Source: TPA_inf: Saccharomyces (lineage: Eukaryota). From it: DNA of 64,000 nucleotides. The DNA is taken from NCBI GenBank assembly GCA_000146045.2, contig BK006941.2:544001-608000 (forward strand). The letters run 5' to 3'. The position numbers and the translations under genes were made by a program. The notes under the pieces were generated by a model. The model searched no databases. It saw only the letters and a list, made by a program, of their open reading frames with translations, and had not been told where the DNA came from. Below, piece after piece: positions 206-17,842 of this stretch; position 1 is the first letter of the stretch, and every line of letters begins with the position of its first letter.

Positions 206-576
206 GTACAATCTCAGAATTCTGAAGGAACACATAAAAGACAATTTATACATATTTACAGATTCTCGTGTATATAACACTCCAATCGTATTGATCAGTC
301 ATATGTTGGCTTTTTTATTTAGGCTTGAGCTCTAACTTTCCAGATGAATGACTTTTCTACTAATATATGTTAGGATTAATAGTTTTATATGTATAAAAAT
401 ATTTAGTCAGTATTTAGCTAAAAAGTTTACTTTCAAAGAATTGTCATGTTTGCAGCTAGTGCCTCTGGTCTTTTGAGTATTCCCAGCCCTTGTTTAGAGG
501 TCATCAAGAATGAACTTGAAATTAGCCGTATCAGTGGTATTAACCTCTTCTAAGAAGAGCAGAAAAAGAAAAAAAT

Positions 577-648
577 CTCCGCGACGGGGAATTGAACCCC
601 GATCTGGCACGCGACAAGCGCCCATTCTGACCATTAAACTATCACGGA
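577..648 (-). tRNA. tD(GUC): tRNA-Asp (anticodon GUC), 72 nt, no intron
   Basis: The reverse complement reads TCCGTGATAGTTTAATGGTCAGAATGGGCGCTTGTCGCGTGCCAGATCGGGGTTCAATTCCCCGTCGCGGAG. This is identical to the yeast tRNA-Asp sequence I remember. It has a cloverleaf with a GTC anticodon and a T-loop GGTTCAATTCC. Confidence 0.9.
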
Positions 649-1369
649 AGAAATATCTGTGAAATGTGACTCTTATAGCATACTATTTTAGTTATGAATT
701 GTGAAAATCCTCCCTGTCCTGCGTTCTACAATTTATTTAGTACTTGTTTGGCAAAAACGTCTCTCAGTGCCATTTACTTTGTAAAAAGTGCAGACTACAT
801 CGCATCAACGGTCATATTAGGAGCCACTTCTATTTTTAACTCAACATGATCATTCAAAAATGTCGATACACTTGCATTTTATTGTACATACTAGTTGGAA
901 GAGGCAGCGTCGATTTTGCTGAAATTTCTAGTAACTTGTAGCAGCAATACATTATATCATAAAAATAACCTGACTTGTAAAAGTTGAAACCCTAACTTTT
1001 ATTATTTCTTTCAATATTTTTCGATTAGACGTGAAAGATGACCAAGCACAACTAACAAAAAATTTGCATCCTCATAAAAAGCAAGACTTTTTGTATGTCG
1101 AAACAAAATTATTAAAAAACACGCATTAACACAGACACGAATTTGGCATACTTTCATTTTACTTTATATCTAGTGAAAAGTAGAAATTGTTTAAGGGAAC
1201 TACTTCACAGTGACCACTGATACTAGAATATGGAAATAAGAAAAGTTGCTAAGTAGGAGCCTAACAATCTTTTTTTATATTTTTCCATATTCCTTTATTG
1301 TCATGGGTCAAGACTGTATATGTTAGTGAAAGTTTTAGGGTTCTTGTGACAAACTTCACCAACATAAAC

Positions 1370-1566
1370 ATGGCCTCTTCGAAGATCCGTAGATTTTGCA
1401 TTTTTGCGGTGGTTTATGGATTCAAAGCGAGGCCTAAATTAACGATCATGTCTTTGCTATTATATCAGAGGGCATATCATTGAATTTCCGATTTCCAAAG
1501 GGAAGAAAATAAATAAAGTTGTGCTATTTCCATGCATCCTTTTTTCTTTCATTCAATGACACATAC
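1370..1566 (+). ncRNA. SNR46: Probable H/ACA box snoRNA (snR46-like), ~197 nt
   Basis: Hairpin 1 pairs GGCCTC (1372-1377) with GAGGCC (1429-1434) and has an extended stem. The hinge AAATTA at 1436-1441 fits the H box ANANNA. Hairpin 2 is closed by TCATTGAA (1477-1484) pairing with TTCAATGA (1552-1559). ACA follows immediately, about 3 nt before the predicted 3' end. The size and position between tD(GUC) and POP6 match my memory of SNR46. The 61-aa ORF at 1298..1483 overlapping it is presumably spurious. Confidence 0.5.
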
Positions 1567-4251: not shown

Positions 4252-9951
<5,700 letters not shown>

Positions 9952-10247: not shown

Positions 10248-10967
10248 TTAATCTTTTCTGGGGCCCCATCTAATTCCCAGAAAGCCCTTCGAATTAGAAA
10301 CCGGATGCAATTTTGGCTTGATCAAATAGTAACGCTTCTCTCCGGGAACATCAACGTACATGTTGATAAAGTCAGGTTGATAATTCTGTTTGGATTCTTT
10401 AGCCTCTAAGTGAACCAACGCTATTTTCTTTTTGGATTCAACGTGGAATCTCATATAGTGATGTGTCCTACCTTCTTTATCTAATTTTTTGGTAGATACT
10501 ATAGGCCTGTTTCTTGTCCATTTGTCATTCGTTATAAGCTCACCGTACGCTTTCAATCTTTCTTTTCCCGTAATGCCATCGTCGCACTGTAACAAACTTC
10601 TTATATCTTTGTTTTTCTCTACCATAGAAACTGCTCTGTTGAAAAGCTGTGTATCACCTGAAGGCGAAAATAGTTCTGAAAGAATTAGGTAAATAACAAT
10701 AGCAGATATACCAACAGCTCCTATCACAAGTATGCCAGAAAAGGTGAACGTAGAAGCGGATTTTACTTGAGGCCATAATGGCTTAGGTTTATTCCTAGTC
10801 TTGTCATCCTTCTTTCCTGATGTTGCGCCGGTGCCATTACTATATAATCTTGTTCTAAGCAGTGACGTATGAGTTATTACCGATGAGTTCACGAAAGTAT
10901 TATATCGTGGAAACAAAGGCTTTCTATGTCCTAAACGGAGTAAAGACCTAGGCAAACTTGAGCTCAT
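10248..10967 (-). CDS. TIM21: Mitochondrial inner-membrane presequence translocase subunit Tim21 (239 aa)
   Basis: Complete 239-aa ORF with an N-terminal presequence-like region (MSSSLPRSLLRLGHRKPLFPRY...) and one hydrophobic segment. Size and position match YGR033C. Confidence 0.7.
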   Translation of the reverse strand: MSSSLPRSLLRLGHRKPLFPRYNTFVNSSVITHTSLLRTRLYSNGTGATSGKKDDKTRNKPKPLWPQVKSASTFTFSGILVIGAVGISAIVIYLILSELFSPSGDTQLFNRAVSMVEKNKDIRSLLQCDDGITGKERLKAYGELITNDKWTRNRPIVSTKKLDKEGRTHHYMRFHVESKKKIALVHLEAKESKQNYQPDFINMYVDVPGEKRYYLIKPKLHPVSNSKGFLGIRWGPRKD

Positions 10968-11240
10968 TGTTTAAACTTGGAGTCAGGAAAATAATATACG
11001 AATGATTTTACCAACCTGATATCTAAAATTAAATTTAGAACTATAACCTGCTGTCACTGGCGGAAAAATACGCCCTCAGGTTTGACCTAGTAGAGCTGAA
11101 CATCTTTTCACTGCTTTCTGTATCCTTTATTTATTGGAGCTTCCGAAACTTCCCAAGAAAAGTGAAGAAAAAACCAGGAAAATCAAAAGACATGACGCAT
11201 ATAATGTACACCTTTTTTTTTTCGCGGCCAAAAATTTAAC

Positions 11241-11332
11241 CTACTCATCTAGATCAGTGGTTGGTAGAGCAGTATTCCGTCATTTTTCATGTCCAGGTTC
11301 GAAGCTGACCTGGTATTATCCGGTTTTTTTTC
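11241..11332 (+). ncRNA. ZOD1: Degenerate tRNA-like RNA polymerase III locus (relic tRNA gene; ZOD1-like)
   Basis: The A-box-like motif TAGATCAGTGG (11250-11260) fits the consensus TRGCNNAGTGG. The B-box-like motif GGTTCGAAGCT (11297-11307) fits GGTTCGANTCC. These are followed by a T8 run (11324-11331), a Pol III terminator. The segment does not fold into a complete cloverleaf: the D-loop is over-long and the T-stem is bulged. I recall a ZOD1 Pol III-bound locus in the TIM21-RPL26B intergenic region. Confidence 0.4.
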
Positions 11333-11490
11333 TTGTTGACCAATAGGAAAAAAAAAAATTAAAATAAAGTCACAGAAATTCAATGAATATTATAAATTTT
11401 TCTTGTTTGTTTCCCTAGTTGTTATTTTTATAAAAAAAATTCTTGTAGACAATAAAATAAGAAATGCCCATTTTGTAACTTAGCGAAAGA

Positions 11491-11522
11491 TGCCCAGTAC
11501 ATCCCTTTTACACCCGTGCATT
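11491..11522 (+). promoter_or_regulatory. Pair of Rap1-like binding sites in the RPL26B promoter
   Basis: TACACCCGTGCATT at 11509-11522 resembles the Rap1 consensus ACACCCRYACAYM. An inverted partial copy GGGATGTACTGGGCA lies at 11491-11504 on the minus strand. Both are about 300 bp upstream of the RPL26B ATG, a typical arrangement for ribosomal-protein gene promoters. Confidence 0.35.
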
Positions 11523-11811
11523 AAAGGTGTTTGGGTTTAATAGGAGCTTTATCATATCTCTTTGATTTTTTTTCTGCTGTCCTCGGCTTGAGGGACTCAC
11601 AGAGATCTGGAAATTTTCAGATTGTCAGTGCTTAGGATGGGTTGTCAGTAGACGGTGGCCGCCGTGGATGGGAAATCTCATACGTTTACACACATAGTGT
11701 TTGGAAATTAATAGTAGCAATAGCTATCTGGCTACTGTTTTAAAGTATTAGCCCGTTCTCAGTGCTTCTTTTTTAAGGAATAACAACGGCAAGACCAAAG
11801 ATATATCAAAT

Positions 11812-11980
11812 ATGGCTAAGCAATCTCTAGGTATGTTTGGAGGATACGAATAACGATAGAAAACATGAGTGAATTTCCGTCCACGAAAAAATGTTAACAT
11901 AAAATGCAAGAGAACAATTAATCGAATAATGTTAAATTATTGTAAAACAATGTGTATGATGAGGAGGAATGTACCTAAGC

Positions 11981-12014
<34 letters not shown>

Positions 12015-12672
12015 AACAGCTTTTGCATATTCAATCCAGGCATAGGGCGACTATTTAGCACTCAACGATTTTTAAGCTTGTGTATTGCTGACATAAATTC
12101 CGGCTTTAGAATCCAATATTGAAAAACGTGAGTACGCAGAGGAGATAGAAGAAAAGTAGGAAGTTACCGTTTATATTGATTTGTGAAATGCATACTCCGT
12201 TGGATGTGGGGCAACATAGATTTAAGTGTGGATGAAAATTATGTGCTCATTGTGAAAAAAAAGTTTTGCTTTTACTAACAAATTTTTTTATTATTTGTTT
12301 TCAATAGACGTTTCCTCTGACAGAAGAAAGGCCAGAAAGGCTTATTTCACTGCTCCATCCTCTGAACGTCGTGTTTTGTTATCTGCTCCATTATCCAAGG
12401 AATTGAGAGCTCAATATGGTATCAAGGCTTTGCCAATCAGAAGAGACGATGAAGTCTTGGTTGTTCGTGGTTCCAAGAAGGGTCAAGAAGGTAAGATTTC
12501 ATCTGTTTACAGATTGAAGTTTGCTGTTCAAGTTGACAAGGTCACCAAGGAAAAGGTCAACGGTGCTTCCGTTCCAATTAACTTGCACCCATCCAAGCTT
12601 GTTATCACTAAGTTACACTTGGACAAGGACAGAAAGGCTTTGATCCAAAGAAAGGGTGGTAAATTGGAATAA
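11812..12672 (+). CDS. RPL26B: Ribosomal 60S subunit protein L26B; two exons (11812..11830 and 12308..12672) split by a 477-nt intron
   Basis: Exon 1 is ATGGCTAAGCAATCTCTAG, followed by the canonical 5' splice site GTATGT at 11831. The branchpoint TACTAAC is at 12283-12289 and the 3' splice site (C)AG at 12305-12307. The spliced product is [31 protein letters not shown]... (127 aa), which is the L26 sequence. The intron carries an A run of about 31 nt at 11982-12012. Confidence 0.9.
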
Positions 12673-13071: not shown

Positions 13072-13422
13072 CTATATGCTACTTTTAGTCCGTTGGATTT
13101 CTGAAGCAGTATTGGCCACAAAAATTTCTTCATTATTTCTACGATTAGAGTTTCTTCTGGATTTTTCTCGTCCCTGAGACTTACTCCTTTTCAAGTCATT
13201 TTCAGCAGCAGCTTTGATTAAATCATATCTTGTGATTTTACTTGGAGAGCTATTGTGATGGGAACTTTGTCTGCATGTGACTGTATTAGTCAGAGATGTT
13301 ATGGGCTTAACCATAAGGGAAGAAACTATGGCACGCATGAATGAATTACTGCTTTTACTGCTGTCATCTGTTGAGTTTGCTGAGTCTTCCGTTCTTGTAG
13401 TCTTGGCTGGTGTGAGTAACAT
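13072..13422 (-). CDS. Small Ser/Asn-rich protein of unknown function (116 aa), YGR035C-like
   Basis: Complete 116-aa ORF in the position and size of YGR035C. Its upstream region carries PDRE motifs (next feature), consistent with a Pdr1/Pdr3/Yrr1-regulated gene. Confidence 0.55.
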   Translation of the reverse strand: MLLTPAKTTRTEDSANSTDDSSKSSNSFMRAIVSSLMVKPITSLTNTVTCRQSSHHNSSPSKITRYDLIKAAAENDLKRSKSQGREKSRRNSNRRNNEEIFVANTASEIQRTKSSI

Positions 13423-15994: not shown

Positions 15995-16681
15995 TTTGCT
16001 GAAAACACTAGTTTAACTAATTTTAGAGTTTTAGTCTTCCTTCTTTTGCTTCACACAGTGAAATGATGTACATAACGTACTTGCTTCCGAGACAGACCAA
16101 TTGATCCAAGCTAGCTATATATATGGCGGTCATTGGGGAGTTGGCCTGGAGCTGTTGAGTTTGCGGACGTGTCAGAGAGCGCGTAGGGCCGCCAGCGCCA
16201 CCTGTCTTCAGGCACCAAGGCCGTAATCTCTTCCGACGGTCATTTTTTAATGGAATGTTTCAATACGAGAGTTTGTGGCATGTAGTTTAGGAACGGATTA
16301 TAGAGAATAGTCGAAATATGTTTAGTCCCTACACAAATTGCTAGACTACCTGTTTCGAGTTTCCTCTATTCCTTTGCTAACGGAGCTGCGGTATATAAAC
16401 CATCGTAGACTCAAAGCCGTTACCCGACAACTATCGGGTATAGTGAAATGCCTATGTTTTCACTTTAAGACCTTAGAAAACTATCATGAGATCTCGCCTT
16501 CAGATGCAGATATTTCAGTGGATTCACGAAACAAGAAAAATTCACTGATCGATAACATCTTCCTTTGCTTGATATTCCCTTTTTGAATTTCCCTAACTAC
16601 CTTTTGTTGTTTACCACATATTCTCTAAAAAGCAGAGTTATTCTTATTTTGTATTTCATTGCATTTTTATCCATTTAGTTA

Positions 16682-17350
16682 ATGACCGAATTAGATTATC
16701 AAGGAACTGCTGAGGCGGCTTCTACCTCGTATAGTCGAAATCAAACGGACCTTAAGCCGTTTCCTTCTGCAGGCAGTGCATCTTCATCAATTAAAACGAC
16801 GGAACCTGTGAAAGATCATAGAAGAAGGCGTTCTTCCAGCATAATTTCACATGTGGAACCGGAGACTTTTGAAGATGAAAATGACCAGCAACTTCTACCA
16901 AATATGAATGCTACTTGGGTAGACCAACGCGGCGCTTGGATTATTCATGTGGTCATTATCATACTGCTGAAACTATTTTATAATTTATTTCCTGGTGTTA
17001 CCACAGAATGGTCGTGGACTCTGACTAATATGACATATGTTATTGGGTCCTATGTCATGTTCCATCTGATTAAGGGTACCCCTTTCGATTTCAATGGTGG
17101 TGCTTATGACAACTTGACGATGTGGGAACAAATTGACGACGAGACTTTATATACTCCTTCAAGAAAATTTTTGATTAGTGTCCCGATCGCCCTATTCTTA
17201 GTTAGTACTCATTATGCTCACTATGATTTGAAATTGTTTTCATGGAATTGTTTTTTGACAACCTTTGGTGCTGTTGTCCCAAAGTTACCTGTTACTCATA
17301 GATTAAGGATTTCTATCCCAGGTATCACAGGTCGCGCCCAAATTAGTTGA
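16682..17350 (+). CDS. ORM1: ORMDL-family ER membrane protein, regulator of serine palmitoyltransferase (222 aa)
   Basis: Complete 222-aa ORF with a Ser-rich N-terminus (phospho-regulatory region) and the ORMDL core (NATWVDQRGAWIIHVV...HLIKGTPFDFNGGAYDNLTMWEQID). Size and position match YGR038W. Confidence 0.8.
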   Translation: MTELDYQGTAEAASTSYSRNQTDLKPFPSAGSASSSIKTTEPVKDHRRRRSSSIISHVEPETFEDENDQQLLPNMNATWVDQRGAWIIHVVIIILLKLFYNLFPGVTTEWSWTLTNMTYVIGSYVMFHLIKGTPFDFNGGAYDNLTMWEQIDDETLYTPSRKFLISVPIALFLVSTHYAHYDLKLFSWNCFLTTFGAVVPKLPVTHRLRISIPGITGRAQIS

Positions 17351-17661
17351 ACATAGTTTATTTCAATCTTGTATCTAGATGTTTTTGCTATATTTATATT
17401 TTCTGGGCCAAATCACTAACGCTTTGAAATTTCAAAAGCCAACAACGGATTTCGGACTTCATTTATGTAAATGAAAAAGAATGTGAACAAAAATTGAAAA
17501 AATTCCATATTAATGCACCTTCTAAACCTATTTGTTGAAATTGTATTTAATTCATATAATCATATTCTATTCAAAAAGAATAACAGATAGTATTAGCACT
17601 ATTTCACGTACTGCTTCTAATACTATTATCACAAAATAGACATCGGAAAACTCAAAAATAA

Positions 17662-17743
17662 CGACAACTGCAGGACTCGAACCTGCGCGGGCAAAGCCCA
17701 AAAGATTTCTAATCTTTCGCCTTAACCACTCGGCCAAGTTGCC
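17662..17743 (-). tRNA. tS(AGA): tRNA-Ser (anticodon AGA), 82 nt, class II with long variable arm, no intron
   Basis: The reverse complement reads GGCAACTTGGCCGAGTGGTTAAGGCGAAAGATTAGAAATCTTTTGGGCTTTGCCCGCGCAGGTTCGAGTCCTGCAGTTGTCG, the yeast tRNA-Ser(IGA) sequence as I remember it. The anticodon stem AAAGA/TCTTT leaves the 7-nt loop TTAGAAA with anticodon AGA. The 5' flank of this gene, at higher coordinates, holds the Ty1 and Ty2 insertions. Confidence 0.85.
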
Positions 17744-17842
17744 AATGTATACATTGCTGTTTCCTGGTTTGAAGAAGCTAATCGTGCACGTAAACAACAA
17801 TCTATACTACAAGTAAAAAAATGGGGAAAAAGATGCTGAAGG

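Follow-up and report, generated by a model that had tools for sequence, protein, structure and literature searches.

ETC9 / iYGR033c, between TIM21 and RPL26B, as a probable tRNA-Arg(CCG) gene relic with retained type-2 Pol III promoter boxes

The element located between TIM21 and RPL26B on S. cerevisiae chromosome VII is, with a probability that we put at roughly 0.85, the relic of a tRNA-Arg(CCG) gene which has kept its type-2 promoter boxes and would form a TFIIIC/TFIIIB boundary between its two neighbours. The locus itself, ETC9 / iYGR033c, is already known, having been named, mapped by ChIP and mutated between 2003 and 2014, and the checks suggested with the original prediction have in effect been made. 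The additions made here are confirmatory, namely the CCG ancestry as established by synteny, the paralogy with the RPL26A-adjacent gene and a footprint restricted to the boxes in six species, and these may already be contained in Guffanti et al. 2006. As a case, the locus illustrates how the promoter boxes of a tRNA gene can outlive the tRNA itself. Positions below refer to the window, i.e. the whole 64 kb stretch of DNA that was analysed.

Results

Identity of the locus

Pfam matches to both flanking genes confirm the placement between TIM21 and RPL26B that had been proposed in the original prediction. The ATG, GTATGT, TACTAAC and AG signals of the RPL26B gene model could be read directly from the sequence, and the gene has the same orientation as the relic (Table 1). 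The B-box is separated from the TIM21 ATG by 329 nt, and the published distance between ETC9 and TIM21 is “approximately 330 bp” (PMC4228148). PMC3139579 gives two qChIP primers for ETC9, each of which has a single exact match in the window, at 11175-11201 (+) and 11301-11327 (-). Since these matches bracket the element, the locus is ETC9 / iYGR033c, also termed “pseudo tRNA-Arg (Chr VII)”, and not ZOD1. Primers, neighbours, distance to TIM21 and tRNA-Arg ancestry all agree with the published locus, and we found no difference from it. The presence of snR46 and of the FKS-type glucan synthase is also in keeping with S. cerevisiae chromosome VII.

Table 1. Positions, strands and conservation of the features of the locus and its surroundings
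Feature	Position	Strand	Conservation in six Saccharomyces	Basis or remark
Relic body, former tRNA-Arg(CCG) gene (ETC9 / iYGR033c)	11243..11316	+		alignment to intact syntenic tRNA-Arg(CCG) genes
A-box TAGATCAGTGG	11250..11260	+	7/11 columns invariant; mean pairwise identity 0.79	1 mismatch to TRGCNNAGTGG
B-box GGTTCGAAGCT, TFIIIC (tauB) binding site	11296..11306	+		1 mismatch to GGTTCGANNCC
B-box window	11293-11303		9/11 columns invariant; mean pairwise identity 0.90	
Inter-box spacer (former 3' D-arm part, anticodon arm, variable region)	11261..11292	+		now unconstrained
Between boxes			0/36 alignment columns invariant; mean pairwise identity 0.39	
Unconstrained flanks			mean pairwise identity 0.35-0.43	
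T8 run at ancestral Pol III terminator position	11324..11331	+		+28 from B-box start
TATAAT	11200..11205	+		~38-43 nt 5' of former tRNA position 1; read from sequence
T10 run followed by CGCGGCCAAAAATT	11213..11236	+	partly conserved	about -30 to -8 of relic
TIM21 (YGR033C) CDS	10248..10967	-		Pfam TIM21, E = 9.7e-60; divergent from relic
RPL26B	11812..12672 (exon 1 11812-11830, intron, exon 2 12308-12672)	+		Pfam Ribosomal_L26
Conserved motifs ACACCCGTGCA, TGTTTGGGT of RPL26B promoter	11507..11540	.	conserved blocks in alignment A1	
FKS-type glucan synthase (FKS2)	4264-9951			in the window
snR46, H/ACA snoRNA	1370-1566			Rfam, 228 bits
tRNA-Asp(GUC)	576-649			Rfam/ARAGORN
tRNA-Ser(AGA)	17661-17744			Rfam/ARAGORN

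Promoter boxes and upstream elements

In type-2 Pol III promoters, TFIIIC binds strongly to the B-box and weakly to the A-box and positions TFIIIB upstream. Both boxes are found on the plus strand of the relic in the tRNA order, with a start-to-start spacing of 46 nt in S. cerevisiae, nearly the ~47 nt originally claimed. Their order, their single mismatches and their spacing (about 30-60 nt would be expected) are those of such a promoter. A composite motif was defined as an A-box and, 30-70 nt further downstream, a B-box, with no more than one mismatch each to TRGCNNAGTGG and GGTTCGANNCC, respectively. When both strands of the 64 kb were searched, this composite was matched at just two sites, the relic and the genuine tRNA-Ser(AGA) gene, and the chance expectation was 0.005 per window (mean of 200 dinucleotide-preserving shuffles). 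Neither the A-box alone nor the B-box alone was significantly enriched in the window. The tRNA-Asp of the window is rejected at the ≤1-mismatch threshold, and as this is a genuine gene, the filter is evidently stricter than real promoters need.

The T8 run that had been pointed out as a terminator is present as well, the predicted end of the segment at 11332 being the C after the run. Upstream of the relic, TATAAT is a possible, weak candidate for a TFIIIB/TBP contact; TATA-like AT-rich strings are seen near its place in most, but not all, of the species. A local realignment (A3) of positions 11213-11236 revealed TTTCGC in 5/6 Saccharomyces along with invariant T, C, G and A columns. This upstream element, TTTCGC..AAAAT, is common to five of the six Saccharomyces and is missing 5' of the intact outgroup tRNA genes. 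It may well mark the transcription-start/TFIIIB region, or it could be an unrelated Pol II factor site.

Absence of a functional tRNA

The claim that no proper cloverleaf can be formed held up, as ARAGORN found no tRNA at the relic either at its default setting or at thresholds of 95-80%, and the Rfam tRNA model (RF00005, gathering threshold 29 bits) did not match it even at E<=10 on 271 nt. There was likewise no Rfam tRNA match for the S. eubayanus orthologue of the relic. The relic thus lacks both the cloverleaf of four stems and 21 bp and the Rfam score of a functional tRNA gene. The predicted CCAGGT/ACCTGG hairpin with its 9-nt loop does appear in the computed fold, at 11293-11313. Three other calls at the site were discarded: a “tRNA-Thr(cgt)” that ARAGORN reports at a 70% threshold is an artefact whose structure is broken and out of register; lax-threshold Rfam matches on the relic and its S. 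eubayanus orthologue (mir-1422, fstAT and snR75 fragments) are noise; and a 70-aa TTG ORF at 11134-11346, which spans the element, has no Pfam match and is disrupted by indels in other species.

Descent from tRNA-Arg(CCG)

The TIM21 neighbourhoods of other yeasts were retrieved via TIM21 homologues, yielding six Saccharomyces loci (S. cerevisiae, S. mikatae, S. kudriavzevii, S. arboricola, S. eubayanus and a locus designated L001) and four outgroups (Naumovozyma dairenensis, Nakaseomyces glabratus, Zygosaccharomyces rouxii and Kluyveromyces lactis). L001, whose TIM21 is 88% identical to that of S. cerevisiae, is treated as the nearest relative of this species in the set and is probably S. paradoxus. 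In 4/4 outgroups, ARAGORN identified a tRNA-Arg(CCG) gene that is intact and has the placement of the relic, upstream of TIM21 and on the strand opposite to it; these genes scored 41.8-50.5 bits with Rfam. Neither ARAGORN nor Rfam found a tRNA at the TIM21 locus in any of the six Saccharomyces. The suggestion that the element is a decayed tRNA gene is thereby borne out by the intact genes at the orthologous position.

The relic occupies the orthologous position in the same orientation and its sequence is alignable with the intact genes, and this alignment (A2), in which former tRNA position 1 corresponds to 11243, displays graded decay. Between 6 and 13 of the 21 cloverleaf pairs are kept in the relics versus 20-21/21 in the intact genes. 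The S. cerevisiae relic lies at the low end of this range with 6/21 pairs, and has retained 35/72 positions relative to the intact orthologues. Across the 5' part comprising the acceptor and D-arm, 23/25 positions still match the intact genes in S. eubayanus compared to 15/25 in S. cerevisiae. The 3' limit of the relic body is approximate, owing to a 4-nt insertion and a decayed acceptor stem. Because the relic state is common to all six Saccharomyces, the tRNA gene presumably died before the genus diverged and has been decaying since, and from this shared state we infer a single ancestral inactivation.

Conservation of the boxes

Alignment A1 covered the whole TIM21-RPL26B intergenic region of the six Saccharomyces species. 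Against a background in which a fraction of 0.16 of the columns is invariant, the conservation of the B-box has a binomial probability of 3e-6 and that of the A-box one of 5e-4 (Table 1). Among all 11-mers of the intergenic region, the B-box window ranks second in conservation. Its CCnGGTTCGA (11293-11302) is invariant not only in the six Saccharomyces but also in the four outgroups. Box spacing remains within 44-50 nt in all six Saccharomyces despite indels, compared to 43 nt in the intact genes. The combination of conserved boxes with 36 inter-box columns at background indicates that selection acts upon factor binding and not upon an RNA product. The terminal T-run is more variable, being T8 in S. 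cerevisiae, T9 in L001 and T6 in S. kudriavzevii, weakened to T4 in S. mikatae and gone in both S. arboricola and S. eubayanus. Since it survives in four of the six species, some transcription-related constraint is possible.

The most conserved block of the intergenic region is a separate one, CTGTATCCTTTATTTATTGGAGCTTCCGAAA at 11111-11150 (core 11119-11129), in which TGTATCCTTTA has 11/11 invariant columns in the six Saccharomyces, and TTATTGG and TCCGAA are likewise invariant. The distance from this block to the TIM21 ATG downstream of it is ~150-180 nt, and the block presumably belongs to the promoter of TIM21.

The whole-genome-duplication paralogue

The gene order before the duplication, as represented by Z. 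rouxii and K. lactis, is FKS - GH72 (GAS) - TIM21 - tR(CCG) - RPL26 - 6PF2K, and the order in the window is FKS2 - TIM21 - relic - RPL26B. Using the FKS2 ORF as the query, we located an FKS1-type paralogue on S. kudriavzevii chromosome 12, where the order is FKS1 - GH72 - (Ty fragment) - intact tRNA-Arg(CCG) - RPL26. Comparison of these block orders shows that the relic and the retained tR(CCG) gene are sisters dating from the whole-genome duplication. The paralogous FKS1-GAS2-RPL26A block was examined in S. kudriavzevii. In S. cerevisiae, the retained gene is TRR4 = tR(CCG)L on chromosome XII, an essential tDNA whose anticodon is unique (PMC5063623).

Two further observations concern these blocks. 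On S. kudriavzevii chromosome 12, an RVT_2 (Ty1/copia-type) reverse-transcriptase ORF (16269-17564 of the retrieved sequence L011) immediately precedes the intact tR(CCG) on its 5' side, as expected from Ty targeting of active Pol III genes, and no Ty remnant was seen beside the relic in the window. In N. glabratus (2061-4675 of L008), tR(CCG) sits between a gene of the PAP2 family (CAX4-like) and TIM21 in a block without an RPL26 copy, which indicates that the linkage of the tRNA to TIM21 outlived its linkage to RPL26 in that species.

Discussion

Published occupancy and function

Recruitment of TFIIIC and TFIIIB, which had been proposed from the boxes, agrees with the literature. ETC9 recruits mainly these two factors according to one report (PMC4228148), while a review places TFIIIC, TFIIIB and Pol III all at YGR033C (PMC5356446). 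These secondary sources on occupancy therefore conflict over the presence of Pol III at ETC9. The locus is described as transcriptionally inactive (PMC4228148, PMC3139579) and as having weak heterochromatin-barrier activity and no Nup2 binding (PMC3139579). [quoted passage not shown] The postulated effect upon TIM21 also has a published counterpart, as 5'-extended TIM21 mRNAs are enriched 4.8-fold in tfc6 mutants (Tfc6 depletion) and were confirmed in three independent etc9 B-box mutants, i.e. the change in TIM21 transcripts is B-box-dependent (PMC4228148). In the model of those authors, a bound Pol III complex keeps a strong neighbouring promoter from acting bidirectionally (PMC4228148).

The sequence of events that best accounts for these data is as follows. 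The ancestral yeast had a tRNA-Arg(CCG) gene situated between TIM21 and RPL26. Of the two copies present once the genome had been duplicated, that of the FKS1-GAS2-RPL26A block remained a working gene (TRR4 in S. cerevisiae), and that of the FKS2-TIM21-RPL26B block lost its cloverleaf before the divergence of Saccharomyces but kept its A-box and B-box, which are spaced by 44-50 nt. These boxes are reported to bind TFIIIC and, through it, to recruit TFIIIB. The bound complex may then act as a roadblock and a nucleosome-phasing boundary, and this boundary would keep the strong Rap1-type promoter of RPL26B from driving divergent transcription across the intergenic region and into TIM21. The conserved motifs ACACCCGTGCA and TGTTTGGGT, located ~270-300 nt upstream of the RPL26B ATG, resemble the pairs of Rap1 sites that are characteristic of ribosomal-protein promoters, and the divergent transcription blocked by the relic presumably originates from them. 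With the relic positioned between the TIM21 promoter and these Rap1-like motifs, the anatomy of the region fits the bidirectionality-blocking model. If transcription of the minus strand began beyond the relic, the TIM21 AUG would be preceded in the transcript by at least 6 (six or seven) other AUGs, opening uORFs of 5-21 codons, and given these upstream AUGs Tim21 should be poorly translated from extended transcripts.

Alternative explanations

If the locus were a neutral pseudogene that is still decaying, its boxes would have survived by chance or for want of time, and factor binding would be without consequence. A gene body at background and the description of the locus as transcriptionally inactive (PMC3139579) both accord with this scenario, but the same evolutionary time has left 9/11 columns invariant in the B-box, 7/11 in the A-box and 0/36 in the spacer, box spacing has been maintained in spite of indels, and mutation of the B-box changes TIM21 transcripts (PMC4228148). 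We consider neutral decay improbable on these grounds. Conversely, the element could be under selection for its product, as a new Pol III-made small RNA of ~90 nt (roughly from 11233 to the T8 run) that is no longer a tRNA. In its favour, S. cerevisiae has a promoter, a possible upstream TATA and a T8 terminator at the site; the T-run persists in three or four of the six species, including those closest to S. cerevisiae; the review cited above lists all three Pol III components (PMC5356446); and Fpt1 binds the relic as it does tDNAs and not as it does ETC sites. Against this, the transcribed body is unconserved outside of the boxes, its predicted fold is no more stable than shuffled sequences (z = +0.53), the terminator has been lost in S. 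arboricola and S. eubayanus, no Rfam family is matched and the literature describes the locus as inactive (PMC4228148, PMC3139579). A selected small RNA is accordingly an unlikely explanation.

The two remaining alternatives concern what the element is. Box-like motifs might co-occur by chance in AT-rich intergenic DNA, and the finding that single boxes are not significantly enriched in the window is at least in line with this; the rarity of the composite and, decisively, the orthology of the site to intact tRNA-Arg(CCG) genes refute it by synteny and alignment, leaving a negligible likelihood. Identity with ZOD1, as asserted in the original prediction, is refuted as well. [quoted passage not shown] The neighbours here are TIM21 and RPL26B, the ancestor is tRNA-Arg(CCG), and the Fpt1 study lists the two loci separately. 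The label therefore has to be corrected: ZOD1 belongs to a different locus, and the TIM21-RPL26B site is ETC9 / iYGR033c.

Relation to other Pol III-derived elements

Like ETC9, ZOD1 on chromosome XIII is a tDNA relic with an A-box and a B-box that is bound by Pol III factors and Fpt1, and it similarly blocks the 5' extension of a neighbouring mRNA, that of RPM2 (PMC4228148). The two differ in chromosome, neighbours and tRNA of origin (PMC5356446), and ZOD1 is reported to be weakly transcribed and de-repressed when nucleosomes are depleted, in contrast to the inactivity reported for ETC9 (PMC4228148, PMC5356446, PMC3139579). The extra-TFIIIC sites ETC1-8 share with ETC9 a conserved B-box, TFIIIC-dependent boundary or insulator function and a location between divergent Pol II genes. 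ETC1-8 bind TFIIIC only, while ETC9 is reported to bind TFIIIB (PMC4228148) and Fpt1 in addition, and unlike ETC1-8 it keeps an A-box and a visible tRNA ancestry. With TFIIIB reported at the site, and Pol III too in one review, ETC9 would be an atypical, tDNA-like member despite its ETC name. Active tDNA boundaries, such as the tRNA-Thr barrier of HMR or the tDNA upstream of ATG31/FAR3, resemble ETC9 in promoter architecture and in having an extra-transcriptional effect on neighbouring Pol II transcription (PMC4228148). They also make a functional tRNA and bind Nup2, and ETC9 does neither (PMC3139579).

A division of roles after the duplication

It is conceivable that, following the duplication, the two tRNA-Arg(CCG) copies split their roles, the RPL26A copy remaining coding (TRR4) and the RPL26B/TIM21 copy being retained, over a period no shorter than the existence of Saccharomyces as a genus, solely for a role at the DNA level, as a TFIIIC/TFIIIB boundary that would shield TIM21 from the ribosomal-protein promoter; we regard the odds of this as about even. 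Paralogy and box-only conservation are observed directly, and the boundary role is presumably what selection maintains. Fixed boxes amid otherwise randomised sequence do point to a DNA-level boundary between the weakly expressed TIM21 and a strong ribosomal-protein promoter. If the proposed split were true, it would be a clean case of subfunctionalisation, in which the “extra-transcriptional” function of a tRNA gene has been parted from its RNA product. The locus also has a bearing on the design of synthetic genomes in which tDNAs and “non-essential” intergenic elements are removed or placed elsewhere.

Other observations in the window

Rfam and ARAGORN calls in the 64 kb comprise only snR46, tRNA-Asp(GUC) and tRNA-Ser(AGA). 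Downstream of RPL26B, at 13072-13422 (-), there is a serine-rich ORF of 116 aa that has no Pfam family; an ORF of matching length (116-120 aa) occupies the syntenic position in other Saccharomyces loci.
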